Counted from the first letter of the stretch, positions 1,872 through 57,617 are shown. The stretch is 64,000 bases of DNA from Methanobacteriota archaeon (GCA_027064425.1 JAMOPO010000015.1:288001-352000); one strand, 5' to 3'. The notes: a model not told the origin generated them from the sequence alone. Numbers and translations are program-made.

Positions 1872-1890
1872 CGTTACGAATTTCGTAACG
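1872..1890. repeat. Spaced palindrome CGTTA-N9-TAACG, copy 1 (3' of tRNA-Glu)
   Basis: CGTTA-cgaatttcg-TAACG. Confidence 0.75.
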
Positions 1891-1906
1891 TTTGAGCGGG
1901 CGAAGG

Positions 1907-2602
1907 TCAGAGGGTGACCTCGTCGGGGCTGCCCTCCTCCACGATCTTACCGTCCCGGAGCACGACCACGCGGTCGGCCCACCGGGTGAGTGACAGGTCG
2001 TGCGTGACCATAACTATGGTCCGACCGTCCTCGTTCAAGCTCTTGAAGACCTCCATGATTCGATGCGAGTTCTTCGTGTCCAACTGACCGGTGGGCTCGT
2101 CCGCCAGGATAACCTCCGGGTCGTTGGCCAGGGCGCGGGCGATGGCTACCCGCTGCCGCTCCCCTCCACTCAGCTGGTTGGGGAACTTGTCGAAGTGCTC
2201 CTCGGAAAGCCCGACCTTCAGCAGCAGGCGCTTGGCCCGCTCTTCGTCCTCCCCGTCCGCGAGGGCCATCGGGAACATCACGTTCTCGAGGACGGTCAGC
2301 GTCTCAATGAGGTTGAACTCCTGGAAAACGAAGCCCACGTACCGGTTGCGGATCCGGGCCAGCTCCCGGTCGCTGAGGTTCGAGATCTCCCTTCCGGCCA
2401 CCTTGACCCGGCCTGAAGTGGGCGTGTCCAGCGCGCCCATGATGTGGAGTAGGGTGGACTTCCCGGAGCCTGAGGGGCCCACGATCATCAGGAACTCGCC
2501 GCGCCGGACCCGGAGGTCCACGCCTCGCAGCGCCTCCACCCGGGTGGGGCCCGAGTTGTACACCTTCCGGACGCCCTCCAGCTCGATGACGACCTCGGCC
2601 AT
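1907..2602 (-). CDS. ABC transporter ATP-binding protein (LolD/MacB type)
   Basis: GPSGSGKST, LSGGERQRVAIARAL, ILADEPTGQLD, VTHD. Confidence 0.95.
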   Translation of the reverse strand: MAEVVIELEGVRKVYNSGPTRVEALRGVDLRVRRGEFLMIVGPSGSGKSTLLHIMGALDTPTSGRVKVAGREISNLSDRELARIRNRYVGFVFQEFNLIETLTVLENVMFPMALADGEDEERAKRLLLKVGLSEEHFDKFPNQLSGGERQRVAIARALANDPEVILADEPTGQLDTKNSHRIMEVFKSLNEDGRTIVMVTHDLSLTRWADRVVVLRDGKIVEEGSPDEVTL

Positions 2603-2614
2603 TCACCCCTCCCC

Positions 2615-3727
2615 CTACTCGTGGCGAAGGGCCTTCACCGGGTCCACTTTCGCTGCCTTCCACGCTGGGTACAGGCCGGAGAACACGCCGATGCCGATGG
2701 CCACCAGGAAGCCTCGCAGGATGGTATCCGGGGTCACGATCATGGTGATGGCTTTGCCCTCCAGTCGCTGGAGGAGGTCCACCACTACGTAGGTGCCCGC
2801 TACGCCCAGCACGCAGCCCAGCGCGCCGCCGATCAGCGAGATCAGCATCGACTCGACCAGGAATATCTTCATCACGCGGGCCCGGGTGGCGCCGACGGCC
2901 TTCATGACGCCGATCTCGCGCCGGCGCTCGAGGACGGACATGAGCATGGTGTTGGCCACGCCGAGCCCGCCTACGATCCCCGCGATGCAGCTGAGCGCCA
3001 GGCCCGCGATCTCCACGGTCCTCAGGTTGTTAATCATGCCCTGGACGGCCTTGCTGGTCTCGATGGCCTCCACGCCCGGAATCCGCCGCTCGATCTCCCG
3101 CTTTACCCGCCTCGGGTCCGAGGTCTGCACGAACACGCAGCTGACAGCTCGCCCCCGAAGCGCCTTCACGCTGTCCAGCGTCGTGATCATGCACATGTTG
3201 GCCAGCTGGGAGGAGGTCCTGAACTCGCCCGCGAGGCGCAGCTTGACCCCGCCCAGGTCCACGGTGTCTCCGAGCCTGGGCCGTATTTGGTTCCAGGCGA
3301 GGCTGCCGAGCGCCGCCTCACCGTCACCCGGAAGCTTGCCCCGGATCGGCTCCACCCGGGACCCGACGACGAAGTCGTACTGTCCGCGCTCGACCGCCGC
3401 GATCATGATCGGCTGGCGGCGTCCCCCGATCGTCACGACCCGGTTGTTGAACCAGACGGACACCGTGTGCTTAACGCCGGGAATCCTCCGAACCCGCTCC
3501 TCCACGGACTGATCCAACAGGCTGGACAGCGGATCGGGGGCCGTCTTGGACTTAACAATAAGTGAAGCGGAACCACCCAGTGCCACTTTGATGTCGTGCT
3601 GCATCCCCTTGGCCACCGAGGATATACTCACGACGGCCGAGATCCCTATTGCCACACCCAGGATGGTTATCAGCGACCTCACCTTCCTTCTGGCCAAATT
3701 TCTCACAGCCATTTTCAGTGTAATCAA
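2615..3727 (-). CDS. ABC transporter permease (FtsX/MacB family)
   Basis: N-terminal TM helix, extracellular domain, SVLERRREIGVMKAVGA, GLYPAWKAAKVDPVKALR. Confidence 0.92.
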   Translation of the reverse strand: MITLKMAVRNLARRKVRSLITILGVAIGISAVVSISSVAKGMQHDIKVALGGSASLIVKSKTAPDPLSSLLDQSVEERVRRIPGVKHTVSVWFNNRVVTIGGRRQPIMIAAVERGQYDFVVGSRVEPIRGKLPGDGEAALGSLAWNQIRPRLGDTVDLGGVKLRLAGEFRTSSQLANMCMITTLDSVKALRGRAVSCVFVQTSDPRRVKREIERRIPGVEAIETSKAVQGMINNLRTVEIAGLALSCIAGIVGGLGVANTMLMSVLERRREIGVMKAVGATRARVMKIFLVESMLISLIGGALGCVLGVAGTYVVVDLLQRLEGKAITMIVTPDTILRGFLVAIGIGVFSGLYPAWKAAKVDPVKALRHE

Positions 3728-3791
3728 CGTTCACACCACTCCCACAATCGAACTGAGTGCCCCCTTCAGCCCCGCGCCCGCGTCCGACCAC

Positions 3792-4508
3792 TTAAATTGA
3801 TTCCAGGGATTTCTTTGGCGTGCCCCGGCGCACAGGCTTTCCATAAATCCTTTTAATCTCCTCGGCCTTGACCGACTCGCCCTCCCGCCGGACCGTCGGG
3901 CGCCCGTCCGGCTTGATCGCGTGCACGCGGAACAGCATCCCGTCCAGCTCGTAGATCTCGCCGACGGTGAACTCCTCCTCCCGATCCACCTCGACCTTCT
4001 CCGAGATCGTGTAGCCGGACGGCAGGTTGATCGAGACGCCGATGCGGGCCGGGATGTCCAGCGAGACCGTCCACACCGACTGGATGTCCATCACCCTGGC
4101 CCGCTTCACGCTGTCCTCCTTGTAGGTGGCAATGTTCGTGATCTCGACGCGCTCACCGTCCACTTCCAGCTCGTCACCGACCTCCAGCTCCTCCCACGGG
4201 TCCAGCTTGATCTCCTTGCACTCCGACTCCTCGTACCGGCTGATCGTCACCTTCACCTTCTTCAGCCCGTAAAACACCAGCCGCGCCGGGTTGACGGTAC
4301 CGCAGCTCTCGCACCGGGCCAGCACGTTGGCTATGTACCGCGGGACTCCCTTCTCGTCCGGGCCCTTCTCGTGTACCGTGGCCCGCACGACCTCTTGAGG
4401 CACCTCGTCGTCCGGCGAGCAGCCCGAGCACGGGGCGTAGACGATCCTACCCTCCAGGTCCGAGTCCGACAGGTCCTCCACGGTGGTCTTCGTGTCGATC
4501 GTGATCAC
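3792..4508 (-). CDS. HVO_0476-like archaeal zinc-finger protein
   Basis: CSGC and CESC pairs followed by beta-rich repeats; start placed at GTG 4508 behind a GGGGTGGTG RBS. Confidence 0.7.
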   Translation of the reverse strand: MITIDTKTTVEDLSDSDLEGRIVYAPCSGCSPDDEVPQEVVRATVHEKGPDEKGVPRYIANVLARCESCGTVNPARLVFYGLKKVKVTISRYEESECKEIKLDPWEELEVGDELEVDGERVEITNIATYKEDSVKRARVMDIQSVWTVSLDIPARIGVSINLPSGYTISEKVEVDREEEFTVGEIYELDGMLFRVHAIKPDGRPTVRREGESVKAEEIKRIYGKPVRRGTPKKSLESI

Positions 4509-4536
4509 GGGCACCACCCCCAGGGGGTCCGGCACG

Positions 4537-4953
4537 TTGGAGGTCAGGATCCGGGCTCGCGGTCACGAGAACGTAACGGGCCGGCACCGGAGCACGTTCG
4601 AGATCACTAAGGACCCGGAGATCGGACCCACGGCGGACTGCATCATAGGGGTCAGGGCGGACCGCGCCTGCGCCGACTTACCGGAGGAGTTCAAGCGTGC
4701 GCTGCGGGCAGGGGCCCGGGTGGAGGTCACGCTGGAGGCGGGCGGCGTCCGAGACCGAGCCGTGGGCAGGGGTGACCCCAGCCTTAAACTCTCTGATGAA
4801 CGCAGCATGGTTTTCCGACGCAGCGATTACGTGGACGAGCGCACCGTGCTCGTCCGGTGCGACAAGGCGGCGCGCGACCTGGACAGAGAGCTCATCGAGC
4901 GGCTCCGGGACCCGGGTACGGTCCTGGAGGTGAGGCTTCGGGTCCTGGAGTGA
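4537..4953 (+). CDS. DUF371 family protein
   Basis: RARGHENV..HRSTFEITKD, ADCIIGVRAD, SMVFRRSDYVDERT; TTG start at 4537. Confidence 0.85.
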   Translation: MEVRIRARGHENVTGRHRSTFEITKDPEIGPTADCIIGVRADRACADLPEEFKRALRAGARVEVTLEAGGVRDRAVGRGDPSLKLSDERSMVFRRSDYVDERTVLVRCDKAARDLDRELIERLRDPGTVLEVRLRVLE

Positions 4954-4972
4954 GGGCGCCCGCGCGGGCCAT

Positions 4973-4991
4973 CGTTAAGGGTTTCGTAACA
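4973..4991. repeat. Spaced palindrome copy 2 (3' of tRNA-Arg)
   Basis: CGTTA-agggtttcg-TAACa. Confidence 0.7.
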
Positions 4992-4999
4992 ATTGGCCG

Positions 5000-5077
<78 letters not shown>

Positions 5078-5123
5078 TGCCCCGTGCGGTGCGCGCCGGG
5101 TGGTGCTATAATAAGGTTGCGGG

Positions 5124-5726: not shown

Positions 5727-5732
5727 TTTGGG

Positions 5733-6140
5733 TCACTCCTCTTCCGATTCTTCTAACCTCTCAGCGACCTCTTGAACGACCTCGAGTATCTCCTTGACCA
5801 CCGCCTCGTCGGCCCGTCTTAGTATCCTTTTGCCCGCGGACTCCAGGACCGTCTTCACCTCCTCCTCGTCCCGCGGCAGCACGTCCAGCAGCCGGTTAAC
5901 CAGGACCTCAATGGTCCGCTCGTTGGCGGTGAGGTCCCTTACCACGGAGCGCAGCTTCTCTCGCGCCTCTTCGAGCTCCTCCTCGTCCAGCTTGCCGAAC
6001 TTCTCCAGGTACTTCAGCGCCTCCCGCTGGTCGTAGGTGAGCTCCGGCTCCCGCTCTTTCAGCACCTTCTCCACCACCTTCCGCGCCTCGTGGACGCTGA
6101 CGGGCCGCCGGCCGCGCACGCGGAGTGAGATGGAGGACAA
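5733..6140 (-). CDS. rpo4: DNA-directed RNA polymerase subunit Rpo4 (F)
   Basis: ELTYDQREALKYLEKF, LLDVLPRDEEEVK; position between rpl21e and DUF655. Confidence 0.88.
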   Translation of the reverse strand: MSSISLRVRGRRPVSVHEARKVVEKVLKEREPELTYDQREALKYLEKFGKLDEEELEEAREKLRSVVRDLTANERTIEVLVNRLLDVLPRDEEEVKTVLESAGKRILRRADEAVVKEILEVVQEVAERLEESEEE

Positions 6141-6152
6141 GGGAGAACCCCG

Positions 6153-12667: not shown

Positions 12668-12758
12668 GCCGGGGCGGCCGAGCCCGGTCCAAGGCGCGGG
12701 ACTGCTAATCCCGTGGCCCGTATGGGCCGCCCGGGTTCAAATCCCGGCCCCGGCGCCA
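12668..12758 (+). tRNA. tRNA-Ser(GCT); C at position 8; long variable arm; CCA encoded
   Basis: GCCGGGG-C...GCGGGA-CTGCTAA-TCCCGT, variable arm GGCCC/GGGCC, TTCAAAT, CCCCGGC-G-CCA. Confidence 0.97.
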
Positions 12759-12766: not shown

Positions 12767-12785
12767 CGTTACGCGTCACATAACG
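12767..12785. repeat. Spaced palindrome copy 3 (3' of tRNA-Ser)
   Basis: CGTTA-cgcgtcaca-TAACG. Confidence 0.75.
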
Positions 12786-12804: not shown

Positions 12805-13068
12805 ATGGCCCTCGAGGTGGGCGACTACGCCCGGTACGTCCGCACCGGCACCGTCGGTAAGATCGTCGACGTGAAGGAGGAGGGCGGCACGCGCTGGTAC
12901 AAGCTCGACTCGACGGGCCTGTACTACCGCGAGGATCAGCTCGAGCGGGTTGACGAGGTGAAGCGGAAGGAGCGGGAGGAGAGCGTGGAGGAGTTCCTCC
13001 AAAAACTGCGAGAGCTCGAGGAGGCGTTCCAGGAGGCGGACGATCGGGTCTGCGAGGGAGGCGGCTGA
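12805..13068 (+). CDS. DUF2098 family methanogen protein
   Basis: VGDYARYVRTGTVGKI, KLDSTGLYY, C-terminal CEGGG. Confidence 0.75.
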   Translation: MALEVGDYARYVRTGTVGKIVDVKEEGGTRWYKLDSTGLYYREDQLERVDEVKRKEREESVEEFLQKLRELEEAFQEADDRVCEGGG

Positions 13069-30629: not shown

Positions 30630-32411
30630 CTACACCCGCCGCCCCACCCTCCGCTCGAACTTGTCTCGCATGTAGATCGCCAGGAAGTTCAGGCTCAGGG
30701 TCACGAGGATCAGGACCAGTGCGGCCGCGAAGGCCTTCTGCTTGGCCTCGGGGACCATGAGGTACTCCTTAGCTATTAGGTATATCCTGAACGCCAGCGC
30801 GTCCGTGGGCTGGAGCACGTGCACGAACGGGTTGCTCGAGACCAGTCCGATCATGACCGCGGTGAGGATGATCGGTGCCGCCTCCTCCGCCGCCCGGCAC
30901 ATGGAGAGCGTGATGCCCGCCGTGATCCCCGGCTTGGCCATGGGCAGCAGCACGTCCTTCACCACGTGGTACCACGACGCCCCAACGCCGCGCGCCGCCT
31001 CGATGTACTCCCTTGGAACGGACCGGAAGGCCTCCTCCGCCGTCCTGACCACCACCGGCAGGTTCATCGTCGCCAGCGTCAGCGCGCCGGCGAGCACTGA
31101 GTAACCCATCTTCATGTACACGACGAAGAGCGTCGCGCCGAACAGACCGTACACGATCGAGGGCACGCCCGCCAGCGTGTCGATCGCGAACCTCACCGCC
31201 CGCGTGAACCGGCTCTCACCCGCGAAGTGCGCCAGGTACAGCGCCGTCGGCACGCCGACCAGCACCGCGAACACCGTGGAGTAAAACATCAGCGCCAGCG
31301 TTCCCAGCAGGGCCGGGTACAGCGAGCTGTGCACCGGGTCGCCGATGCTCACCGGGCCGAACAGGGCGTCCCAGCTGAGCGCTCCGATCCCGTTCACGAA
31401 GATGTAGCCGGTGATGCCCACCAACGCGGCCGCCGCGATCACGCCCGCCGCGATCATGAGCCCCGTCATGAGCTTGCTCGCGAGGACGGGGTTCACCCGG
31501 CCGGCCTTCACCTTCCGACGCACCTTGGGCTTCCCGGCGCGCTCCCGGTACCAGTACGTGATCACGATGACCGCCGTCACCATCAGCATCAGCACCAGAC
31601 CCGCGAAGTACAGCGCGTAGTATCCCGGGGAACCCACGGGCAGCACCGTGGCCTGCAGGAGGATGTGTGCGGACAGCGGCCGGCATGGGTCCAGCGGGGA
31701 GTGCGGGATCATCAGCGCGCCGCCCGCGACCAGCGCCACCGCGACCGTCTCGCCCAGGGCCCTCAGTGTGCCCAGCATGCCACCGGCCGCGATTCCGGAC
31801 AGGGCGGCGGGCCACAGCACGGTCCTCACGACCTGCCACCGGGTGGCGCCCATTCCCAGCGCGGCCTCCACGTACTCCCGCGGGACCGAGCGGATGGCCT
31901 CCATCATCACGCTGGTCATGTACGGCAGGATCATGATCGCGACGATGATGCCGGCGACCAGAACCGAGTAGCCCGAGGGAGCGCCTAGGTAGTACCGCGC
32001 GAACGGGACCAGCGTGAGGATGCCGAACAGACCGTAAACGACCGAGGGGATGCCGGCCAGCATGTCGATGGCGGGTCGGAGCGTCCTGCGCAGGAACGTT
32101 GGAGCGAACTCCGCCAGGTACGTGGCGCAGAGCAGCGAGACGGGGAAGGCGATCGCCACGGCGATCGCGGTGACGTACAGGGTCGAGATGATCATCGGCA
32201 GTAGTCCGAGCTTGGGTGGCGTCGACTCCGGGTCCCAGCTCGTGCCGAGCAGGATCTGGCCCAGCGAGTTGAACTGCAGGGCCTTGACACCGTTGAGAGT
32301 TAGGAAGAAGTAGATCCCGACCACCGCGGCGATGGACAGCGCCGCCGCGACCGTGAGCGAGGTGATCATCCGCCGCGTGGTCTGCGCCTGCTCCCGAACG
32401 AGCTCCTTCAA
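30630..32411 (-). CDS. pstCA: Fused phosphate ABC permease PstC-PstA
   Basis: Two permease units in one frame, each with LAG(I/V)PS(V/I)VYGLFG and an EAA loop. Confidence 0.9.
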
Positions 32412-32425: not shown

Positions 32426-32444
32426 CGTTAGCTGTCGTTTAACG
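32426..32444. repeat. Spaced palindrome copy 4 (between pstS and pstCA)
   Basis: CGTTA-gctgtcgtt-TAACG. Confidence 0.7.
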
Positions 32445-32491
32445 ATACCCGGGGTTGTAGAAATAATGCACGAGGGGGCGGGCCGGGGACC

Positions 32492-33466
32492 TTACACGAG
32501 GGGCTTGATCTCCACGAACGGCTTCTTCGTGAACAGCGGCGCGTTCGGCGGCACCGGCACGTAGCCCAGCGCCTCGGCGATCTTCTTGTTCACGTCCGGC
32601 TTCCGGACCCACTTGATCAGCGCGATCACCGTCTTCGGCGCGCTAGCCCGGTCGATGATCAGGTACTCGGCTCGCGTCAGCGGGTACTTCTTCGACTGGA
32701 TCGTCTGCTTGTTCGCCTCGATGCCGTTCACCTTCAGCGGCTTGACCACGCTCGGCACCTTCTTCTCCTTCTTGGCCTTCACGACGTACACGTAGTCCAC
32801 GTAGCCGATCGCGTACGGCGTCTTCTCCACCTTCTCTAGCACCTCCGAGTTGGAGCCGCACAGGATCGCGTCCTTCCGGTAGTCCTTGATGTTCAGGTAC
32901 TTGTCGAACGTCGCCCGCGTGCCCGAGCCCTTCGCTCGACCGATCACGATGATCTTCTTGTGCGGTAGACCCGGCTTGACTTGGTCCCAGTACTGGATCT
33001 TACCCTCGTAGATGGCCTTGAGCGTCTTCAGGTCGATGTTGTCCAGCTGGCCCAGCGTCTTACCGTTCACGATCGGCACGATGCCGGACATCACCACCGG
33101 GCACATCACCGGGTCGCTCAGCTGCTGCGCCTCCTCCGGCTTGATCGGCCGCGACGCCATCGCAATGTCGAACGAGCCGTCGATCAGTCCCTTGATACCC
33201 GCACCCGATCCACCGTCCGTGACCATCAGCTGCACCGGCTCGTTCGGCAGACCGCGCACGCCCACCTGGTCACCCAGCTGCTTCCACGTCATGCGCTGCT
33301 CCTCACCGAGCTTGCTGGCCACCTTCATCATGAACGGCATCAGGCTCGTTGAACCGCCGATCTTCAGCTGCGTTTTCACCTGGGATGCCGAGTAATAGTA
33401 CGCGACGCCGCCACCGATCGCCGCCACGATCGCGACCGCGATCGCGGCCAGTACGGGCTTCTTCAT
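32492..33466 (-). CDS. pstS: Phosphate ABC transporter substrate-binding protein
   Basis: N-terminal TM helix, GGSTS, GGSGAG, DIAMASR, R..GSGTR, AIGY, YPLTR. Confidence 0.92.
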   Translation of the reverse strand: MKKPVLAAIAVAIVAAIGGGVAYYYSASQVKTQLKIGGSTSLMPFMMKVASKLGEEQRMTWKQLGDQVGVRGLPNEPVQLMVTDGGSGAGIKGLIDGSFDIAMASRPIKPEEAQQLSDPVMCPVVMSGIVPIVNGKTLGQLDNIDLKTLKAIYEGKIQYWDQVKPGLPHKKIIVIGRAKGSGTRATFDKYLNIKDYRKDAILCGSNSEVLEKVEKTPYAIGYVDYVYVVKAKKEKKVPSVVKPLKVNGIEANKQTIQSKKYPLTRAEYLIIDRASAPKTVIALIKWVRKPDVNKKIAEALGYVPVPPNAPLFTKKPFVEIKPLV

Positions 33467-39106: not shown

Positions 39107-42100
39107 TTACCACCGGGGCCGCCCACCGACCGGCCCGGCGCGCCTCAGCCCCTGGGTGAAGAGCGCCGCGGTCCCGACCGCCGCGAGCAGGACCAGAACC
39201 AGCAGCCACCGCGGGAAGTAGGGGGCCGCCCCCGACGGGTGCTCCCTCGCGAGAACACGGGTGGCCCTGACACCGCGGTGGGCAGCCACACCCGCCCCCT
39301 TGGCACCCGTGGTTGCCGCGGCCGGGCCCCTAGCCGGAACCCCGGTCAGTGAGAGGCCGCCGGTCGCCCCTCGGGACTGTGCTTCGCGGGTCCAGGGCCG
39401 GGAGATCATGGCAGTCAGCCCGCTCGGTGGCCCTGAGAGTCCTCGGGCCGGACGGAGGAGGGTTGAGGTGACGGCGGGGGTCGCCGGCGCAGCCGTGGCG
39501 ACTTCGGTGACTTCCGGGGCGGCCCTCGGGGTGGCCACGGGGCCCGTCGTCGCGCTTGCGGTGACGTGGGTGAGAACCGCCGGGGTGACTGCCGGGCCGG
39601 CGACCGGAACTTCGAGTGCGGCATGGGTGCCGACGGTCGGGCCGAGAGTCGCTGGGGCGGGCGCGGGACCCGGTGCCCTGGCGGGCCCGGTGATGGTCGC
39701 TGGAGTCGCGGTTGCGAGGCTCACAGGCGTCGGGGCTCCGATCATCGGAACGGTCGCGAGGAGCTCGGCGGCGAGCCGTGCCACCGCTTGAACCTGGAAG
39801 GCGCAGAGCTCCGGGCAGCAGCAGGACGTAGCTAGGACCCAGGAGAGGACCTCTCGCGGGTACGTCACGCCGAGGTCCCGGGAGATCCTCACCAGGAAGA
39901 AGGCGGCCGAGGCCAAGGCGGCGGGTACGCTTCGGAGCCAGCCCGCGTGCTCCCTGACGACGGACCACACGGTCGGCAGGACGGCCCGGTAGGGCTCTCG
40001 TCCCGCGGCCACGTAGCCGAGGGTGGCGAACCGCTTGAGGGATCGGAGCAGGTAGAGCGCGCCCGAGACCCCGAACCGCCGGAGTCCCTCGATGAATCGC
40101 CGGTTGAGGAGGGTCCGCAGCAGGCTCTCGACGAGGTACGTCCGGGTGGCGACTAGCGGCCCGGTGACGCCGCGCTCGACCTGGGCGTGGAGTGTCCGGA
40201 GCTCGGTCGTGGCGCGCAGGAGGGCCCTCCTCCAGCCGACGAGGCGCGCGAGGCCGCCGGCGCTCTTGGCCAGGTTCCACCCGGGCTTGAAGGCGCCCAG
40301 GTCGAGCCTCGAGACGTCCAGGGTGAGCCGTCGGAGGGTCTCCGGTTTGAGCAGGTAGTCGAGGAGCGCGGCGATCGTGGCCTCTAGACCCACCGTGCAG
40401 CCGCAGCAGAACAAGTTCGAGTAATCGTCGTAGGAGTCGTAGACCTGCAGGGTTGTGTCCGAAGTGATCACGGCAAGAGCGAGCGCGAGCGGGCAGTGGA
40501 GGAAGGGTTGCCGGGTCCCGGTGAGTTCGGAGCGGGTGTACGGAAGGATGACGTAGGACAGGCTGGCGAGCGCGCGTAGCCCCAGCCACTCGAGACTCTC
40601 CCGGTCGTACAGCCCCGCCTCAAGCATGGGGAGAATGGGGGCCGTGAGGTCCCCCGGGCACTGGGTGAAGGCACCGACCGCGGCGAGCACCGGGGCGTTC
40701 TCGCCCGTGAGCTCGCCCAGGAGCCAGCGCGGGAGGCCGGCCCGCAGGGCCTCGCGTAGGGCCAGGTACGACACGGCCCAGTTCAGGAACGGGGCGTTGC
40801 GGGAGGGCGGGATCCAGAGGCCGGTTCCCAGTGCTACGGACCAGAGGAGCTCGGCCAGGTTCCAGCCGACGAGGTCTCGCAGCCCCACGACCACGTAGTC
40901 GTTCAGCCGCTTGAGACCCTCCCACAGCTCCCGCAGCGTGCCCACCGGGTCGGCCCGCAGCCGCTCCCGGACCCGGGTGAGCAGGGCTCGGAGGAGCTGC
41001 GGAACCAGCCCGCGCTCGCGGAGGCGGGAGAGCGCTCGGTTGATCCACTCCTCGAGCGTCCGAAGCAGGTCCTGGAGCGCCGTGGACCGGTCGGTCCCGT
41101 GCGGGCGGGCGGTGGGCAGCAGGTACGACCGCTCACCCAGGGCGTAGGCGATCCACGGCTCCGCCGAGATCACGTCGAGCATTCGGCACAGGTTGATCAG
41201 CGATAGCGCGGATGGACTGATCCCCTGGAACGTGGCCCCGGAGACGACGAGGAGCACGTCGCACCTGACCCGGGGCTCGCGGAGCACGGTCACGGCCAGC
41301 ACCCTGGCGACCTTGACGTCGAAGGCCAGCTCGCCGACGACCACGGCGCGCCGACCCGGAGTCAGCCGGATGGGGTACCGGAACCGAACCGTGACTCGGG
41401 CCCTCGGGTCGCGCTCGGAGCGGAGCACGACGGTCCGGTCGTCCACCACGCGGTCCACGACGCCGGCGACGCAGGCGCTGGTGCCGCCGCACACGGTCGG
41501 CATCGCGACGAGGTCGGCCACGTCCACCACGTCCTCCTCACTGTAGTAAACGACCAGGTCAGCGCACAGCAGGCGCACGTTCTCCACCCGGATGGCTGGA
41601 ACTCCGAGCACCGTGACCTCGCTCCCGAGCGGGACGGAGACCCCCTCGGGGAGGATCACCTCCACCCGGGCCGTCCCGTCGTCCAGGATGGCCACGGTGC
41701 CCTCCGGTCCCGGGCGCAGCTCGGTGACCCGGCCGCGCAGCAGGAGGACCTGCACCGGGACGTTGATGTGCCGAACGTGGATCAGCGGTAGCTCCCAGGG
41801 CAGCACGCCGATGACCTCGCCGGTGAGGTTGGTCCCGTAGGAGGCCCGGCCCGTGGTGGTCGGCACGTAGCTGCGGAACGAGGTCTTGACCGGGATGTAC
41901 CCGAGCAGCTCCAGCGCCAGCGCGTACTGCAGACCTCCCGTCGCCAGGTCCGTCGGGCCCATGACCGTGACCACCCGCTTTGACGTCCGGCGGAGCTCCA
42001 GGGCCAGCGTGGCCGCGGCCGAGACCGCCAGCTCGTCCGGAAACCGGCGCACGTCGTATCCGCACGCGTTCCGGCCGGTCGGGGCGACGTCCAGGTACCG

Positions 42101-45100
42101 GAAGGGGGAGCCGGAGAACCCCGGGCGCACGTACTCGCCTCGCAGCGCCCGAAGCAGGTTCTCGACCTCCAGTCGAGCGCTGAGGAGGAAGCGCTGGAGT
42201 ACCCGCAGGGCCAGCCGAGAGACCTCGTCGACCGCCCGCCCGGCCCACACGGCCGCCCAGTCCACCCTCGGACTGGACCACAGCGCCCGCCGCAACGCGA
42301 GCTCGACCATGCACTCCAGCGAGCCGAGCGGGTCCTCCGGATCGATCGACGGCAGCCCGTACACGTGCAGCCCGCACATCCCCGACTCCTCCACAGTCTC
42401 GCGCAGGAGCTCGTAGAGCGCCTCCGCGCAGCGATCGAAGTCGCGCTCGAGGTCCCGGAGGTCGCGCGCCACCGCGACGTACAGCCCGGTCTCCCGGAGG
42501 AGCCCCTGAATCGCCTCCCTCAGGGCGTCGGCCCGGGTCGTCAGGTACCGCTCCAGCAGGTCCAGTAGCCTCGCGACCCGCGGGTCGAGCTCCACCCGGT
42601 TCCTCGGGGCGGGAAAGTGACCGAGGACGATCGCGCCCAGCCGGCGTCGCGCCGTCGCGCAGCCCACCACATCTCCCACGTGGTACAGGCAGACGATCGG
42701 CGTGCCGGCCGGTAGGATGATCGGGAACTCCCACCCCACGGGCAGGACGGGCTTCATCGGAGCCCACTCTAGGTTCCCGCGACCGCCCACCCGGACGACG
42801 GCGTCCACGTCCAGCCTCCGGGTCAGGTAATACCAGAACGCCAGGTTGCGTGGGCGGCAGGAGCATCGCCCAGAGCTCGGCGCGGGTCTTCATCCGAAAC
42901 AGTGGCGGTTCTGGCAGAATGTATACGTTTCCGAATCTTACTCCAGGTATTGGGAAGGCGCGCACGCCGTCGGTGATCCTCAGGAACGGGGACTCCTCGG
43001 GCGGGCCCCACCCGAACAGCCCGCCCAGCTCGTCCAGCCGATCACGCCACTCCTTCCACAGCTCGTCCAGCTCCCGCAGCACCGATTCCCTATCCACCGA
43101 CCGTCCGAGGGCGGCCTCCACCAGCACTCGCTCCACGCCCTCCAGCACCCGCGCGAGCCGGCGGGCGAGCTCCCGGCGCTCGTCCTCCGGGAGGTCCAGT
43201 CGGTCGAGGGCAGCGAGCACGGTGTCGCGGAGGGACCGGAGTCTCATCCGGAGGAACTCGAGGTAGCGTCGGTCCGGCGGCAGCTCCTCGGGACGGGCCC
43301 GTTCGACGAGGTAGCGGAGGTAGCCGAGGATGCCGCGCTCCACGTACAGCCGGGTGGGCTCGGGGAGGGAGCGGTACCACCGCAGGTACTCGTCGAGCGT
43401 GACCTTGTCCAGGAGCAGCAGCTCGACCCGGTGCGATCGGCCGGCGACTCGCTCGGTGATCCGGTTCAGGCCCGTGCGTAGGGGCGGCGTCCTCACGTAG
43501 GGGCCCAGGTGATAAGCTCTCGACAGGTACTCACGCCAGAACCCGTCCGAGAGCTCGAGGAGTATGTTCAGGGCTTCGCGGAAGGCCTCGACCGCCCCTC
43601 GCAGGTCACCCCGCTGGAGGAGCTCCCAGGCCTGACGATCGAGCTCGATAACGCGCCGGAGCCGGTCGTCCCACGGCGTCCGGACGGCGTACCCTTCAGC
43701 CTCGAGCCAGGCGAGGACGTGCAGGATGCTCGCGGGCACGTCCAACTGATCCGCCACGGCCACGAAGTCACGGCCGTAAGTATCCACGCCGTAAACCAGC
43801 GCGACTCGCTTCTCGTGGTTCGGCTTCTCTCGGAGCCGGCGCAGGTGGTCGACCAGGCGCACGACCGCATCGATCGTCTCGGAGACCGCGGCACCGCTGG
43901 CTAGGAGGACGCCGCCGGGCACGTGCCGGGCGAGCTCGGGCGAGAGCCGGACGACGCGGGAGGTACCGACGAGGAAGGGGCCGAGGAAGCCGAGGTTCTC
44001 GGGCACGATCACGTTGAAAATCATGTAATGGTCCGCGGCGCGCTCAGACATGTAGAGGCACTCCCACTGGAGCCGGGTCATGCCCATGTGGTTGGCGTCG
44101 AGGGCGACGACGGGGACGTCCAGCCGCTCGAGGAGGCGAACGAGCCGGCTGTCGGGACCGTAATACCGCATCATGCTGTGGTTCACGGCCCAGAGAACGC
44201 AGACGGTGCGCTCCGAGCGCACGGCGGCCTCGAGCGCGCGGAGGAAGTCCTCGGGAAGCATGTACAGGACGTCGTAGTGCAGGGCGACGCCGATCACGTT
44301 GTAACCGCGCTCGCGGAGCCGGAGGGCGAGGGCGCGCAGCCAGTCCAGGTAGCCGAGGTGTCGGCCGAGCAGGTTCACGGAGTCGAAGACGACGAACACC
44401 GTCGGCGCGCCGGGCCGGTACGTGCCTCGGGCTCGGGCGAGCTCGCGGTAGCGGGCGAGGAGCTCGGACAGCCTCGGGAGGACCGCGGCCCGGATCAGCT
44501 CGACGAACCAGCGCGGGTACACGGTGACGCCGTGGTAGCTGGAGAGGACCTCGCCGTGCGGGTACCTCCGCTGGTAGGATCGTATCAGCCCGGGGCTGGC
44601 GGGCTCCTCAGGGGCCACGACGGTGTCCGAGACGGGGTCGTACAGGGACAGCAGGCCGTCGAGATAGAACGCCTTGGGCGGCTCGCCCGTAGCTACGTAC
44701 CGGAAGAACTGGATCACGTTCCGCTCGGAGAGCGTGGCCAGGAACAGGTACAGCGGAATCTCGGCGCCGCCCACGTCGACGGTGCGGTCGGCGAGGGGGA
44801 TCATGCGGGCGCGGGCGGACCCGGTCGGGAGGTTGATCCGGTTCTGGTACACGTAGAACGGGACGCCGCGGGCGAGGGCCTCGGCCAGGGCCACGTACTC
44901 GGGGGCGGAGTAGGGCTCGAGCGCCGTCAGCCCGGAGGAGCGGTAGAGAACGACCGCGGAGGCCTCGCGGATGCGTTGGCAGACCTCCTCTCGGACGTCC
45001 GTCCGCTCGGCGCCGACGATGAGCGCATCGTAGGAGCGGGGGTCAATGGCCAGGAACTCGAGGCCGGCCTTATGCAGTGGTTCGAGGAACTGGCCGGCGT

Positions 45101-45188
45101 AGCGGGAGATGATCACGATCTCGCCGGCGTGGGTGGGGGTGGGGAGCAGAAGCAGCGGGAGCAGAAGGAGGAGGGTGGGCCGGGTCAT
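39107..45188 (-). pseudogene. Large secreted CobN/Mg-chelatase H-like protein (about 2,030 aa), frameshifted at about 42846
   Basis: Signal peptide; CobN-like motifs KPNHEKRVAL, LDVPAS, WGPP, PGVRFGNV, PPT, then in another frame LAFWYYL..DAVVRVGGRGNLEW, GLHVYG, PTGRN; Thr/Pro/Ala linker and C-terminal TM helix. Confidence 0.75.
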
Positions 45189-46845: not shown

Positions 46846-46864
46846 CGTTAAGATAATCGTAACG
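46846..46864. repeat. Spaced palindrome copy 5 (3' of aroB')
   Basis: CGTTA-agataatcg-TAACG. Confidence 0.75.
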
Positions 46865-46898: not shown

Positions 46899-48110
46899 CT
46901 ACTTCTCGATGATGCTCTCCTCGACCTCCATGCCGAAGTGGCGGCCCTTGCGCTCCTCGGTCTCGACGAAGGCGAGCACCTTGTCACCGGGCTTGAGGTC
47001 GACGACGGAGACGGGCTCGCCGTCCTCGCGGACGAGGTGGATGGTCTCGGCGTTCTGGACGATGGTTTGGATTTCGATGCCCTCGTACTCGGCCTTGATC
47101 AGGAGGAGCGGTCGCTTCTCGATCTTGAGGCGGCCGACGACGGCGGTGCGGGTGTTGCCGTCCTTGTCGACGATGAGGACCTCGTCGCCGGGCTCGAGCT
47201 CGGAGAGGTACTTGGTCTTGCCGCCGGGCACGCGGATGTACGCGTGGACGGGCCCGGCGTTGACGCGGAAGGGCCGCGGTTCGACGTAGGGGTTGTCGAG
47301 GCTCTCGCTGTGGATCAGGAACATGCCGCGGGCGGTGGAGCCGACGAGCATGCCCTCTCCTTCCTCCATGAGGGTGCAGGTGTCGACGCAGACGCGGTCT
47401 CCCTTGCCGATGGGCTCGATCTCCTTGATCTCGACGGGGACGAGCTCGAACTTCTCGGCGGTGACCTCCTCGGCCACCTCGGCCGTCTTCTTGATCTCGC
47501 CCGGCTCGATGCGCTGGGCGTCGAGCAGCACGCCGTCGGAGCCGACCTCGAGGGTCTCGAAGGCGATCTTGGCCTCCTCCGCGTCCCGGGCGCCGGCGAT
47601 GATCTTGGTGGGCTCGTCCTGGAGCTCGGCGATCAGGTTCTCGAGTGGGATGATCTTCCAGTCGCGGCCGATGGCGATCAGGTAGTCGGGCTCGAGCTCC
47701 TTGGAGATGTCGGCGGCGAAGCGCTCGTAGGGCTTGTCCTCGATCTCGACGTACTCGGCGACCTCGTAGCCCGCCTCCTTAACCCGACGGATGAGCTCTC
47801 CGTCGATGGACTCGCTCACGTCGTCGGGCAGGTCGATCGTGCCGTCGCCCTCGCCTCGGATGCCGACGATGACGAGGTCGGCGTCGACGTTCTCCAGCTC
47901 GTCGAGGGCCAGGTCGGGCGAGCCGCCCTCGGCCGCGAGCGGGACGGCGACCTTGACGTTGCCCAGCTCCTTGACCTTCTCCACCTCCTCCGGTAGGCAG
48001 ACGATCACGTCCGCGCCGGCCTCGATGGCCTCGGTGACGAAGGGCTTCTTCTCCTCCCACGAGCCCTCAAAGGCGATCGAGACCCAAACCTCCTTCTTCT
48101 CGTCGCTCAT
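46899..48110 (-). CDS. aroB': 3-dehydroquinate synthase II
   Basis: DWKIIPLENLIA, GDRVCVDTC, RPFRVNAG, QNAETI, GRHFG. Confidence 0.95.
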   Translation of the reverse strand: MSDEKKEVWVSIAFEGSWEEKKPFVTEAIEAGADVIVCLPEEVEKVKELGNVKVAVPLAAEGGSPDLALDELENVDADLVIVGIRGEGDGTIDLPDDVSESIDGELIRRVKEAGYEVAEYVEIEDKPYERFAADISKELEPDYLIAIGRDWKIIPLENLIAELQDEPTKIIAGARDAEEAKIAFETLEVGSDGVLLDAQRIEPGEIKKTAEVAEEVTAEKFELVPVEIKEIEPIGKGDRVCVDTCTLMEEGEGMLVGSTARGMFLIHSESLDNPYVEPRPFRVNAGPVHAYIRVPGGKTKYLSELEPGDEVLIVDKDGNTRTAVVGRLKIEKRPLLLIKAEYEGIEIQTIVQNAETIHLVREDGEPVSVVDLKPGDKVLAFVETEERKGRHFGMEVEESIIEK

Positions 48111-53356: not shown

Positions 53357-53392
53357 TCGCAACGGTGATCAAGGCCGGTCTCGACCCGAAGG

Positions 53393-53617: not shown

Positions 53618-53661
53618 TTATTTATCCCGGGACCGGCCGGCGCGGGCCGGGGTGACCGGCC

Positions 53662-54363: not shown

Positions 54364-54368
54364 CCCCC

Positions 54369-55049
54369 GTGTACAAGCAGCGCTTCGTCCTCGACACCAC
54401 CGCCTTCACCCACCAGGACGTCGTCGACCGCCTCGGCGACGGCGACCTCTGCCGCGCCGTCTCCGAGCTCCTCGACCTCATCGCCCGCGCCCGCATGGAG
54501 CTTCACATCAGCTGCTACCTCCCGTACCCCACCGTCTACCGCGAGCTCAAGGGCTTCCTCGAGCGCAACGACTGCCCGGCCGAGCTCGTCTCCCGCCTCG
54601 ACACCTGGATCGTCAAGAAAACCCCCAACCGATACGAGGTCAAGGTCCCCGCCCGACTCTTCATGGCCTACGTCAAGGACATGCGCGGCCGCCTCGACCG
54701 CGGCCGTAAACACGCCGAGAAGGCCATCTGGAACGCCGCCCTAGAGACCTACGAGATCATGCTCCGAGAGGAGGCCGACGTGCCCAAGGAGAAGATCATT
54801 CGCGAGATCATCGGCGAGACCGTCCGCCGCTTCCGCCGCAAGTACCGCCGCACCGTCCGCCACGGTACCCTCGACAGCGCCCCCGACCTCGACGTTCTCC
54901 TCCTCGCCAAGGAGCTCGACGCCGCCGTCGTCGCCCAGGACGAGGGCATCGAGCGCTGGGCCCGCGAGCTCGGCCTCCGCTACATGCCCGCCACCTCCTT
55001 TCCCGACATGATCCAGGAGTACCTAGAGCTCGCCAAGGAGGTGGAGTGA
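54369..55049 (+). CDS. rnp3: HARP, RNA-free RNase P (PIN domain, UPF0278)
   Basis: FVLDTTAFT, KKTPNRY, GTLDSAPDLDVLLLAKEL, DEGIERWA. Confidence 0.9.
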   Translation: MYKQRFVLDTTAFTHQDVVDRLGDGDLCRAVSELLDLIARARMELHISCYLPYPTVYRELKGFLERNDCPAELVSRLDTWIVKKTPNRYEVKVPARLFMAYVKDMRGRLDRGRKHAEKAIWNAALETYEIMLREEADVPKEKIIREIIGETVRRFRRKYRRTVRHGTLDSAPDLDVLLLAKELDAAVVAQDEGIERWARELGLRYMPATSFPDMIQEYLELAKEVE

Positions 55050-56491
55050 TGCGGCTCGCGCACCACCTTAAGCCCGTCTTCGCCGTCCCCGGGGACGACA
55101 TCCACGAGCCCTACCTCGAGCTCGCCGAGCGCGACGAGCTCATCCGCACCAACCGCGAGGACACCGCCGCCTACGCCGCCATCGGCGCCGCCGAGGTCTC
55201 CAACGAGCCCGCCGCACTCCTCGCCACCCGCGGCCCCGGCCTCGCCCACGCCCTACCCGGCCTCGCCTGCGCCCTCGCCGACCACGTCCCCATCCTCTGC
55301 ATCACCGGAGCGCCCGTCGACCAGGGCTTCCAGTCCCTCCTACCCAGCCTCGAGTCCAACCGGCTCCGACTCACCGTCACCGACGACCCGAAAGAGGCCG
55401 CACGGTCCCTCGCCCGCTCCCGGCCCGCCGTCCTAACCCGGCCCCAGGCTCCCGACGAGCTCGAACCGCACCTCCGCGAAGCCCAGCCACCCCAGCCCAC
55501 CGACGATGAAATCGACGAGGTCCGCCGCCGCCTCGAGGGCAAGAAGGTCACCATCCTCGTCGGCCGCGGCTGCTACCGCTCCCTCGCCGGCGAACACATC
55601 GAGCGCCTCGCCGAGCTCCTGAACGCCCCCATCGTCCAGACCATGCGCGGCCGCGGCATCGTCCCCGAGTACCACCCTCGCAACTACGGCGTCGTCGGCC
55701 TCCGCGGCTGGGCCAACCACGTCCTGCAGGAGGCGGACGTCATCCTCGCCCTCGGCGCCCGCCTCACCGAGCGCACCCTACCCGAGGAACCCGACGCCGA
55801 GATCATCGCCGTCACCCTCCACCTCAACGGTCCCGCCGACCTACACCTCGAGTGCGATCCCGTGCCACTCCTGCAGGCCCTCGTCAAAGACCCGCCCGAA
55901 ACGCAGCCCTGGGAGCCCGAGCGCCGCGAGCCCGACGAACCCGACACCCACGCCTACCGCGTCGTCAAGACCGCCCTCCGCGCCTGGATCGGCCCCGTCA
56001 CCCTCGACTCCGGCCAGCACACGCCCCTCACCCTCCTCGCCGCCCACCTCTCCTCCCCCAACGAGCTCATCCACTCCGGCGCCTTCTGCCCCATGGGTTT
56101 CGCCCTCCCCGCCGCCCTCGGTGCCGCCACCCGTACCCCCGAGCCCGTCCTCGCCATCACCGGCGACGGCGGCTTCCTCGCCACGCATCACGAGCTCGAG
56201 ACCGCCGTCCGAGAGGACCTCCCCATCACCGTTCTCGTCCTCCGCAACCGAGAGCTCGGCTTCACCCGACAGACCGCCGACCTGGACGACCCCGAGCCCG
56301 CCAAGATGGACCTGCCCACCGACCCCGCCGACCTCGCCGAGGCCTACGGCATCGAGGTCCACCGTCTCGAGCACGACCAGACCGACGAGCTCCACCGCAC
56401 CCTCCGCGACGCCGAGATGCAGCGCGAGCCCACCGTCGTCATCGTCGAGCTGCCCCGAGAGGACATCCCGCTCCCCGGCCGGTCCGACTGA
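55046..56491 (+). CDS. Thiamine-pyrophosphate-dependent enzyme (acetolactate synthase-like, divergent)
   Basis: REDTAAYAA, TRGPG, MGFALPAALGA, GDGGF..N TPP motif. Confidence 0.85.
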   Translation: MMRLAHHLKPVFAVPGDDIHEPYLELAERDELIRTNREDTAAYAAIGAAEVSNEPAALLATRGPGLAHALPGLACALADHVPILCITGAPVDQGFQSLLPSLESNRLRLTVTDDPKEAARSLARSRPAVLTRPQAPDELEPHLREAQPPQPTDDEIDEVRRRLEGKKVTILVGRGCYRSLAGEHIERLAELLNAPIVQTMRGRGIVPEYHPRNYGVVGLRGWANHVLQEADVILALGARLTERTLPEEPDAEIIAVTLHLNGPADLHLECDPVPLLQALVKDPPETQPWEPERREPDEPDTHAYRVVKTALRAWIGPVTLDSGQHTPLTLLAAHLSSPNELIHSGAFCPMGFALPAALGAATRTPEPVLAITGDGGFLATHHELETAVREDLPITVLVLRNRELGFTRQTADLDDPEPAKMDLPTDPADLAEAYGIEVHRLEHDQTDELHRTLRDAEMQREPTVVIVELPREDIPLPGRSD

Positions 56492-56701
56492 GCCACCCCG
56501 ACCCTTCGCCCCCTCTCCCACCCTTACCATTGTAACCGTGGGCCAGCGGGCCTCAGCAAGCGACGACCCGCGACTCCAGCCCCGGCCTACAACCCGGGCG
56601 GGTCCGGCCGAGGGGCGAGCGCGCCCATCGGTCCCGGCCTGTACGCTGCGGTGGGGTCGGCCCGCCCTCGCAACCGTTTTATCCTCCAGCCTGATTACAA
56701 A

Positions 56702-57349
56702 ATGACGGCACGCCCGGAACCCGGGGTGGCGCGAGTGACCTGGCAGGGCGCCCCATTGCCTTCGGATCCCGTGGAGCGGATTCGGTGCCTGCGCGTGCTC
56801 CGGGAGGCGTATCGGCGGCAGGTCAAGCCCGAGCTGCGAGAGACGTACCGGCGGGTTGGCGGGAAGACGTACGGGCCTTATTACGTCGCGTACTTTAAGC
56901 GGACTCCGGGGCGCCGGCACCCCAGGCTGATCTACCTGGGCAAGTCGGGCCCGAGCGTCGAGTTCGTCGAGTGGCTCGCCGAGCAGTCGAGGAGAACCGT
57001 GCTTGACCTTGCTCGACTCGCGGTGCGGCACCTTCGAGCCGCGCTCGAGCGGATCGTTGAGGAGGCTCGCGGGTCGGGGGACTCGCGCCGGCTAATCGCC
57101 CGCACCCTCGCCCTCGCCTTCGACCTCGAGCCCGCAGGACTCCCCCAGCTCCGCGACCTCCTCGACCGAGCACCCAGGTTCGCGAGGACCGTGCTCGGCC
57201 CCTGGAAAGCCTGGTTCACCGAGCGGGTGCTCAGAAAGCTCCTCTACCGCCGGTCTCGGGATGGTAAGCGCTGGGTGCCCGACGTTCAGCTCGAGCTTGA
57301 GCGGTGGCGGTCCGGGCGCGGGGCGCGGTGCGACCGGACGCGACCGTGA
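56702..57349 (+). CDS. Basic, Arg-rich Methanopyrus-type orphan (DUF1678-like)
   Basis: ELRETYRRVGGKTYGPYYVAYF..RLIYLGK motif; family call from memory only. Confidence 0.55.
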   Translation: MTARPEPGVARVTWQGAPLPSDPVERIRCLRVLREAYRRQVKPELRETYRRVGGKTYGPYYVAYFKRTPGRRHPRLIYLGKSGPSVEFVEWLAEQSRRTVLDLARLAVRHLRAALERIVEEARGSGDSRRLIARTLALAFDLEPAGLPQLRDLLDRAPRFARTVLGPWKAWFTERVLRKLLYRRSRDGKRWVPDVQLELERWRSGRGARCDRTRP

Positions 57350-57501
57350 TCTCCGCGGGACACTCGGCGTGAGCGTCGGCTCGGGTCGGTCGGGCTCGCT
57401 CCGGGTCGCGAGCGTTTTCCGGGGGTCATGTCCTCCATCGTGTTGGCACCCTCGGCTCGGGGCGGCCCCGAAGCCTGCGCCCCCACCGCTCGGAAACGGG
57501 T

Positions 57502-57520
57502 CGTTATGGGGCTTGTAACG
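57502..57520. repeat. Spaced palindrome copy 6
   Basis: CGTTA-tggggcttg-TAACG. Confidence 0.75.
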
Positions 57521-57530
57521 TTCCGTGGGC

Positions 57531-57594
57531 GGCCTCGGGGCCCGCGACTCCGATCATCCCCGGCGGTCGCCGTGGGTCCACCTCATCATCGGCC
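57531..57594 (-). ncRNA. C/D box sRNA candidate
   Basis: Reverse complement GGCC-g-ATGATGA-12nt-GCGA-..-GGGATGA-15nt-CCGA-GGCC with terminal stem. Confidence 0.6.
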
Positions 57595-57598
57595 GGTT

Positions 57599-57617
57599 CG
57601 TTCCGGTGGTCGTAACG
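57599..57617. repeat. Spaced palindrome copy 7 (one mismatch)
   Basis: CGTTc-cggtggtcg-TAACG. Confidence 0.6.

Follow-up and report, generated by a model that had tools for sequence, protein, structure and literature searches.

A 25-bp palindrome of Methanopyrus follows stable RNA genes and a set of protein genes and may be a protein-bound, bidirectional 3′ boundary of transcription

Terminators in which a DNA-bound protein acts as a roadblock are represented by Reb1/Nsi1 in yeast, TTF-I at the Sal boxes in mammals, and mTERF1 in mitochondria. Archaeal termination is now explained by oligo-T tracts together with the general factors FttA/aCPSF1 and Eta. For RNA polymerase I (Pol I), structured RNA just upstream is described as aiding release (PMC13675443), and Reb1p is treated in PMC10310618. 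We found no sequence-specific, DNA-encoded terminator and no natural roadblock for Archaea in the literature searched, including passages of PMC7289017, PMC10310618, and PMC13675443. Here, we analyze a palindrome, CGTTA-N9-TAACG, that recurs in a 64,000-nucleotide stretch of DNA from a Methanobacteriota archaeon (GCA_027064425.1 JAMOPO010000015.1:288001-352000; the whole stretch is termed the window herein). Its occurrence was followed in the source genome (G000; 1.54 Mb, 57 contigs, 67.8% G+C, with the window at C15:288001-352000) and in a second genome (G002; a single contig of 1,694,969 bp, 61.2% G+C) whose numbering agrees with that of M. kandleri AV19 in PMC3695527 Table S1. From the arrangement of its copies, we propose, with a probability of roughly 55%, that the element is a 25-bp dyad that serves as the duplex site of a symmetric, genus-specific protein and forms a bidirectional 3′ boundary by roadblock termination.

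The motif itself is not new, because "CGTTA(N)9TAACG, tRNA downstream" is listed for Methanopyrus kandleri AV19 in PMC5217627 (BMC Genomics 2017;18:27, Table 4 and Fig. 5); a preliminary description of the window, made from the sequence alone, had known of no account of it and has to be corrected on this point. That paper places the motif ∼10 bp past the end of about half of the tRNA genes, calls it specific to M. kandleri, and speculates that it is the target of a tRNA 3′-maturation enzyme. The arms, the spacer, and the position ∼10 bp 3′ of tRNA genes are the same in both accounts. The published account dealt with a single strain and saw the motif at roughly half of its tRNA genes. In our analysis, the motif comes after every tRNA gene examined as well as after other stable RNA genes and ∼55 to 70 protein genes, spans 25 bp, and occurs in six of six genomes of the genus; an RNA signal was the idea there, whereas the element behaves like a double-stranded DNA site here. 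What is new is the scope of the motif, its duplex-DNA character, and its tie to 3′ boundaries. Beyond PMC5217627, we found no later literature on the motif or on Methanopyrus transcription terminators, and neither Methanopyrus nor a palindrome is mentioned in passages of a review on termination from 2026 (PMC13675443).

The window (68.4% G+C) holds the seven copies that had been reported, five of them perfect (1872, 12767, 32426, 46846, and 57502; chance expectation, 0.01) and two with one mismatch (4973 and 57599; chance expectation, 0.27), and none of 100 dinucleotide-preserving shuffles of the window matched these numbers. The sites and the RNA genes beside them are the following, with scores from the 25-bp weight matrix introduced below.

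1727..1861, plus strand: tRNA-Glu(TTC) gene with introns and encoded CCA, identified by alignment to two intron-bearing tRNA-Glu genes of G002
1872..1890, no strand: palindrome site, perfect (25-mer 1869-1893, AATCGTTACGAATTTCGTAACGTTT); 42.1 bits
4973..4991, no strand: palindrome site whose core has a single mismatch (TAACA); 33.6 bits; 8 nucleotides (nt) past the 3′ end of tRNA-Arg(TCT)
5000..5077, minus strand: tRNA-Arg(TCT) gene (ARAGORN, Rfam)
12668..12758, plus strand: tRNA-Ser(GCT) gene (ARAGORN, Rfam)
12767..12785, no strand: palindrome site; 27.3 bits; 8 nt after tRNA-Ser
32426..32444, no strand: weak palindrome site with perfect 5-nt arms, yet only 12.8 bits on the 25-bp matrix
46846..46864, no strand: palindrome site; 35.3 bits; 34 nt past the stop codon of a 3-dehydroquinate synthase II gene (46899-48110, minus strand)
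57502..57520, no strand: palindrome site; 24.5 bits; 14 nt past the D-like box of a minus-strand C/D box small RNA (sRNA) candidate
57530..57595, minus strand: C/D box sRNA candidate with C box GATGATGA (57590-57583), C′ box GATGATC, and D-like box CCGA (57538-57535)
57599..57617, no strand: palindrome site whose core has a single mismatch (CGTTC); 26.4 bits; directly 5′ of the minus-strand sRNA candidate

Outside these seven sites, nothing in the window scored more than 8 bits (control maximum, 4.6 bits). The preliminary description needs a correction for the copy after pstS, which is weak by comparison with the other six (24 to 42 bits). Most other particulars of the preliminary description were borne out. 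Each of the three tRNA genes of the window has a motif 8 to 10 nt 3′ of its CCA; the tRNA-Glu CCA ends 10 nt before the site at 1872, whose distance to the stop codon of a convergent ABC-ATPase gene (1907-2602, minus strand) is 16 nt, and the site at 12767 lies 19 nt ahead of the ATG of a DUF2098 gene (12805-13068, plus strand). The neighbors named for two copies, pstS and aroB′, were confirmed by Pfam: the site at 32426 is 47 nt past the stop codon of a pstS-like PBP_like_2 gene (32492-33466, minus strand) and 14 nt before the predicted start of a fused pstC/A-like BPD_transp_1 permease gene (30630-32411, minus strand), and the site at 46846 follows the 3-dehydroquinate synthase II gene, whose G002 ortholog likewise has a site (G002 1437676). 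The sites at 57502 and 57599 do bracket a C/D sRNA candidate, recognizable by its C, C′, and D-like boxes; it resembles M. kandleri C/D box sRNA 40 by eye only (common CGACCGCC...GGGATGATCGGA), and a MAFFT alignment with the G002 sRNA 39/40 locus was not clean. A possible second C/D box sRNA was seen by eye to the right of site 57599 (∼57650-57712, plus strand; ATGAGGA...CTGA...TGATGAG...CCGA). The tRNA-Glu(TTC) gene, with two inserted segments, was called neither by ARAGORN nor by the tRNA model of Rfam. Its sequence is almost the same as that of both intron-bearing tRNA-Glu genes of G002, for which an unusual D-loop intron is described in PMC3695527.

A scan of spacer lengths (k = 0 to 30) over the source genome, as proposed in the preliminary description, gave a clear excess at k = 9, with 53 perfect copies versus two at k = 8, one at k = 15, two at k = 26, and none at any other length; in G002, there were 34 copies at k = 9 versus zero or one elsewhere between k = 5 and k = 14. 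Alignment of the 53 copies extended the conserved element to 25 bp, namely, the dyad AAT-CGTTA-YGA-N3-TCR-TAACG-ATT, in which a 3-nt center separates two arms of 11 bp. The 19-mer first described is its core and not its full extent. A symmetric 25-bp weight matrix was trained on the source-genome sites, many of which lie beside tRNA genes, and the reversed, non-complemented genome served as the control. The matrix found 121 sites in G000 at ≥14 bits (1 in the control) and 121 in G002 at ≥16 bits (2 in the control). The half-site ATCGTTA occurs 127 times in G000, 98 times within palindromes and 29 times alone (4 in the reversed control). The unit is the pair and not the single word, and a single word of the DNA-uptake type was rejected on these counts. 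The 25 bp are all that the copies have in common; no bigger element surrounds them. Perfect copies number 26 to 58 in each of six Methanopyrus genomes and 0 to 3 in 25 genomes of other archaeal families, where they do not exceed the count of the pattern read backwards. Among these 6 and 25 genomes, the element is restricted to the genus Methanopyrus. On the small contig C2 of the source genome, five sites (517, 1176, 3002, 3126, and 3340) lie within 3.4 kb, three of them in one convergent spacer; this cluster may consist of small RNA genes that are each followed by a site.

Stable RNA genes are followed by the element with great regularity. All tRNA T-arm matches, 38 of 38 in G000 and 35 of 35 in G002, precede a site of ≥16 bits, the distance from the nominal CCA end to the first core base being 5 to 13 nt (most commonly 8 nt in G000 by manual count). 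In both genomes, sites also lie downstream of 5S rRNA (10 to 14 nt), the signal recognition particle (SRP) RNA (14 to 17 nt), and RNase P RNA (∼24 to 26 nt). The 16S and 23S rRNA genes were not assembled in G000; in G002, a site lies 85 nt downstream of 16S rRNA and 148 nt downstream of 23S rRNA. The C/D box sRNAs do not follow this rule, since manual comparison placed a site within ∼20 nt of the 3′ end for only ∼6 of the 126 published in PMC3695527 (sRNAs 39, 42, 53, 59, 69, and 95), so the earlier statement that the motif marks the ends of RNA genes stands for tRNA, rRNA, SRP RNA, and RNase P RNA and fails for C/D sRNAs. Sites were also found ∼240 to 320 nt past the last listed CRISPR RNA (crRNA) of CRISPR clusters 1 and 3. 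The tRNA-Val gene just upstream of the G002 23S gene has degenerate sites only (584910 and 585055; 19 and 22 bits), and a strong site (38 bits) follows the 23S gene, as if tRNA-Val and 23S rRNA were co-transcribed.

The position of the sites relative to protein genes was determined with gene calls from a simple codon-statistics finder (1,477 genes covering 86.5% of G000 and 1,611 covering 85.3% of G002). The 121 sites of G000 divide into 52 in tandem spacers, 34 in convergent spacers, 5 in divergent spacers, 15 inside called coding sequences (CDS), and 15 at contig edges; those of G002 divide into 59 tandem, 37 convergent, 10 divergent, and 15 inside called CDS. Some of these are miscalls: the sites behind 5S rRNA and behind certain sRNAs counted as lying inside a CDS, and several "inside" and "divergent" sites in fact follow RNA genes that the gene finder missed. 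Among spacers of ≥25 bp (383 tandem, 100 convergent, and 193 divergent in G000; 531, 134, and 230 in G002), a site is present in 34 of 100 (34%) and 37 of 134 (28%) convergent spacers, 52 of 383 (14%) and 59 of 531 (11%) tandem spacers, and 5 of 193 (2.6%) and 10 of 230 (4.3%) divergent spacers (chi-square test, P = 8e-13 for G000 and P = 2e-10 for G002). The spacer scan and the spacer classes of two genomes support the specificity for k = 9, the intergenic location, and the bias to gene 3′ ends that had been suspected from the window. At tandem sites of G002, the gap to the upstream 3′ end is 4 to 9 nt for tRNA genes (with approximate ends) and mostly 15 to 45 nt past stop codons, and the gap to the next start ranges from −1 to 3,623 nt. 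Seven convergent gene pairs per genome have a single site within 70 nt of both stop codons; such shared sites fit a two-way function.

This distribution bears on whether the element could be a promoter or operator of the gene downstream. A subset of sites does lie 13 to 23 nt ahead of the next start codon, and the motif is AT rich in a GC-rich genome. The divergent spacers, however, are the poorest in sites, and the distance to the next start is variable. Canonical TFB-recognition element (BRE)/TATA-like boxes lie ∼30 to 40 nt upstream of the G002 tRNA genes, and the CRISPR leaders have TTTAAA according to PMC3695527; because the promoters are canonical BRE/TATA, the motif is not the promoter. 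The BRE/TATA promoter reading was rejected on the spacer-class distribution, the unfixed start distance, and the canonical tRNA promoters, and any role as promoter or operator of the next gene appears very improbable. An operator-like site in a divergent spacer common to G000 and G002 was sought as a pointer to the binding protein, and none was found.

Protein genes with a motif downstream number 55 of 1,443 in G000 and 70 of 1,611 in G002. The 58 G002 genes with a site within 80 nt downstream were scanned by Pfam (five more, which span a locus border, were left out). They include mcrB, mcrA, thermosome, EF-2, EF-1beta, ribosomal proteins S10, S15, L10, and L7Ae, doublet histone, glutamine synthetase, P-II, MCH, an S-layer-like protein, a TRAM protein, rubrerythrin, and DHQS II, and 20 of the 58 have no Pfam match. 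That the motif follows strong transcription units, as first supposed, fits these identities (mcr, thermosome, and translation genes), which are the basis of the judgment rather than expression. The mcr operon has two sites, the first separating mcrB from the gene that follows it and the second located 3′ of mcrA (G000 C26:20006 and C26:23947; G002 612406 and 616346), and both are kept in both species; the site inside the operon implies regulated or leaky passage. In both genomes, a low-scoring site (23 bits) touches the predicted GTG start of the next gene (G000 C3:145634; G002 981466), and its G-rich center occupies the usual place of the ribosome-binding site.

The sites are conserved at orthologous places. 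The proteins of G000 and G002 have a median identity of 76.5% (1,228 reciprocal best hits); 45 motif-followed G000 genes have an ortholog, and the motif is also present at the ortholog in 28 of these, against a background of 46/1,228 (odds ratio, 107; P = 3e-33). When the 28 ortholog pairs were aligned on the motif, the flanks were 38% and 42% identical and the 3-nt center 37%, compared with 75% for the arms and 100% for motif positions 2, 3, 17, and 18. The motif is a conserved island amid otherwise randomized spacers. A recombinase core site, one of the early suggestions, is disfavored because the sites hold orthologous places in two diverged species.

The same conservation bears on a selfish or neutral repeat of the repetitive extragenic palindrome (REP) or miniature inverted-repeat transposable element (MITE) type that is tolerated at harmless gene 3′ ends. 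The element is palindromic, extragenic, and multicopy, and its order of convergent over tandem over divergent spacers is that of bacterial REPs. REPs and bacterial interspersed mosaic elements (BIMEs) are likewise extragenic palindromes; they are concentrated where operons end and where genes converge, and DNA-acting proteins bind them. They differ from the Methanopyrus element, for which orthologous positions are kept while the flanks are randomized, the distance to RNA 3′ ends is nearly fixed (after 38/38 and 35/35 tRNA genes), the stems do not covary, and nothing larger than the 25 bp is shared. The genus also has no REP-associated tyrosine transposase (RAYT): the Y1 (RAYT/IS200-type) transposase PF01797 was detected in none of the six genus genomes, while six control genomes were positive. 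A REP/RAYT element was rejected on the absence of the Y1 transposase and the conserved orthologous sites, and the repeat reading as a whole is largely refuted and the least probable of those weighed here.

Whether the dyad is read as DNA or as RNA can be judged from its variation, for which each site was given the orientation of the gene that ends ahead of it. Conservation is equal in the two arms irrespective of the direction of transcription, and G2, T3, T4 and A16, A17, C18 are virtually invariant. At the inner positions of the G002 sites (6 to 8 and 12 to 14), 117 of 288 cells (41%) are Watson-Crick pairs, or 164 of 288 when G·U is included. Shuffling the right-arm letters among sites reproduced the observed pair counts in every segment of both genomes (z, −1.75 to +1.65), so the arms vary independently. 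G·U pairs, counted on the sense strand, were not favored over A·C mismatches (72 versus 95 over four oriented sets: 20 versus 37 and 9 versus 14 for tRNA, and 12 versus 15 and 31 versus 29 for CDS). The compensatory changes and G·U tolerance of a hairpin terminator or RNA 3′ stabilizer were thus not found. Invariant sequence with independent half-sites is expected of a symmetric dimer on duplex DNA and not of a structural RNA stem, and the suggestion of a dimeric protein site on double-stranded DNA gains support from this independence. The view that an AT-rich stem of 5 to 7 bp would make a poor hairpin was upheld as well, because the predicted minimum free energy (MFE) at 85°C fell below zero for just 17/84 and 2/96 sites, and at 98°C it did so for none (0/84 and 0/96); this evidence is soft, since the parameters are for standard salt and cell salt is far higher.

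An element acting in RNA could be a bare or protein-bound hairpin of the nascent transcript whose effect is termination, a barrier to 3′ exonucleases, or the guidance of an endonuclease, including as a tRNA 3′-maturation signal. Such a role would suit an inverted repeat that keeps a short, constant distance to mature 3′ ends, and the extended 11-bp arms of the G000 sites are largely complementary (median MFE, −7.8 kcal/mol at 37°C). CCA is encoded in all tRNA genes examined, which complicates RNase Z processing. A role in RNA is also what PMC5217627 proposes. Against it stand the lack of covariation and of G·U preference and the near absence of predicted folds at high temperature, as described above, and the arm sequence is invariant over ∼120 sites and between species, a constancy for which a structural hairpin would have no use. 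Only ∼30 to 36 of the ∼121 sites per genome are adjacent to tRNA genes, and the remainder follow rRNA, SRP RNA, RNase P RNA, sRNA, and protein genes; a role in tRNA alone fails because about two-thirds of the sites lie away from tRNA genes. Six of six genus genomes encode an RNase Z-like protein (full length, below the curated cutoff). No motif-containing RNA is among the abundant small RNAs in the readable text of PMC3695527 Table S1, where ATAACG, GTAACGA, and the full motif have zero occurrences. One H/ACA RNA of that table, ending in AATCGTTAC..., was considered as a motif-containing transcript and rejected, as the genome holds only a half-site there. The readable parts of PMC3695527 report tRNA intermediates with 5′ leaders and introns and place 3′ processing first; their small-RNA lists contain no 3′-trailer class, although a mention of trailers may stand in other parts of the paper. 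Taken with these points, action at the RNA level is improbable.

The element was also compared with oligo-T terminators and with the termination machinery of the genus. Like the archaeal oligo-T terminators that work with FttA/aCPSF1 or Eta (passages of PMC7289017), it lies shortly after genes, and the genus keeps aCPSF1/FttA (six of six genomes, above the curated cutoff). Some Methanopyrus genes have poly-T ends as well, and rows labeled "3′ UTR, 3′ poly-T" are found for M. kandleri in PMC3695527 Table S1. The motif differs from oligo-T terminators in being a dyad of invariant sequence without a T run (≥5 T on the non-template strand) and in seldom occurring with T5 runs. T5 runs within 120 nt after genes are found at 66 of 1,611 genes in G002 and 46 of 1,443 in G000 (∼3 to 4%, like the motif); T5 and motif occur together at four genes in G002 (4/70 motif-bearing) and at one in G000 (1/55). 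This near-exclusivity suggests that the motif substitutes for oligo-T as a terminator replacement. The 15 to 45 nt from the stop codon to the motif are strikingly rich in C (57% in G000 and 49% in G002, compared with 36% and 32%, respectively, in control 3′ regions) and poor in G (23% and 16%, compared with 31% and 28%); an example is 32445-32491 of the window (minus strand), and the tails before published poly-T ends look alike. The C-rich stretch may add to the 3′ signal a second component that acts at the level of RNA. The TFS zinc ribbon (PF01096) was detected in none of the six genus genomes, with four of four archaeal controls positive, in agreement with passages of PMC7289017 that name M. 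kandleri as an exception among archaea in lacking TFS.

A serious rival is a duplex-bound protein with no part in termination, in which case the sites would be topological or chromatin boundaries, topoisomerase entry sites, or replication fork barriers behind heavily transcribed units; the readings as RNA signal, selfish repeat, and promoter are much less likely. REP/BIME elements serve gyrase in E. coli, and fork barriers flank ribosomal DNA. Half-sites that vary independently suit such a protein equally, the units whose 3′ ends have sites are those transcribed most heavily, and the sites are densest between convergent genes, where positive supercoils meet. The conserved sites between mcrB and mcrD inside the operon are easier to reconcile with a boundary that lets polymerases pass, and the genus has a topoisomerase of its own, Topo V (unique to the genus according to the abstract of PMC9489208). 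However, no link connects Topo V or another enzyme to the motif sequence, the tight spacing to RNA 3′ ends and stop codons meets no obvious topological need, and motif and T5 runs are nearly exclusive. We consider such a non-terminating role unlikely, with a good deal more in its favor than the other alternatives.

Termination by a roadblock is the explanation that we prefer. As in the roadblock systems of Pol I and mitochondria, a specific site is found directly 3′ of transcription units that include rRNA and tRNA genes, where a bound protein would act on polymerases from either side. No homology is implied, and the Methanopyrus case differs in that the protein is a predicted one, the site is a 25-bp perfect dyad, mRNA genes are included, and a T-rich release element is lacking. 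The predicted binder would be a symmetric, probably homodimeric, Methanopyrus-specific protein seated just 3′ of transcription units, which would stop or stall RNA polymerase arriving from either side. A release factor such as the aCPSF1/FttA homologue might then clear the stalled complex. At stable RNA genes, the short fixed gap would place the stalled active site at or near the mature 3′ end, and the weaker sites within operons could act as partial stops. The loss of TFS would make stalled polymerases harder to restart, so that stalls might be hard to reverse.

Several points weigh against this proposal. The context counts carry some error because the gene calls come from a crude codon-statistics finder. 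A purely steric block usually stops polymerases 10 to 15 bp before the obstacle, and with 5 to 13 nt between the CCA end and the core, such a block would end tRNA transcripts at or slightly inside the CCA. Conserved sites are found at points of read-through, namely, between pstS and pstC/A, between mcrB and mcrD (both genomes), and abutting a start codon (both genomes); termination is not complete everywhere, since some conserved sites lie where read-through is needed. The read-through-point sites have lower median scores than the tRNA sites (29.4 versus 36.7 bits in G000 and 26.8 versus 32.8 bits in G002; P of ∼2e-4), which is compatible with graded, leaky stops, although the comparison is partly circular because G000 sites, with many tRNA neighbors among them, served to train the matrix. 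The outer 7 to 8 bp of the stem never vary enough for a pairing test, and a short protein-bound RNA hairpin is still conceivable. Finally, the literature on sequence-specific DNA-binding proteins of Methanopyrus yielded no candidate binder for the motif.

Apart from the palindrome, the window contains two long minus-strand open reading frames (39107-42808 and 41559-45188; 1,233 and 1,209 amino acids) that overlap by ∼1.2 kb in different frames. They could be a frameshifted or misassembled large gene or an artifact of high G+C content.

About 120 near-identical, strongly selected sites thus stand at every stable RNA gene and at flagship genes of methanogenesis and translation, and their function can be tested with a 25-mer duplex. 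In its widest form, our proposal is that Methanopyrus has replaced much of oligo-T termination by a lineage-specific, DNA-bound dimer whose bidirectional roadblock sets the 3′ ends of all stable RNAs near the mature ends and closes the most expressed operons, an arrangement that may have arisen with the loss of TFS. We offer this wider form tentatively, at somewhat less than even odds. If it is true, tRNAs would be made with almost no trailer, and Archaea would have their first known system of protein-roadblock termination. If a protein does bind the 25-mer, it would represent a new mechanism of termination or insulation and a candidate account of how an archaeon without TFS, living near 100°C, ends transcription in GC-rich DNA, and it would provide a compact, portable, bidirectional terminator part for the genetics of hyperthermophiles. 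If the role is topological instead, the sites would be the first archaeal counterpart of the 3′ boundary sites of the REP/gyrase type.

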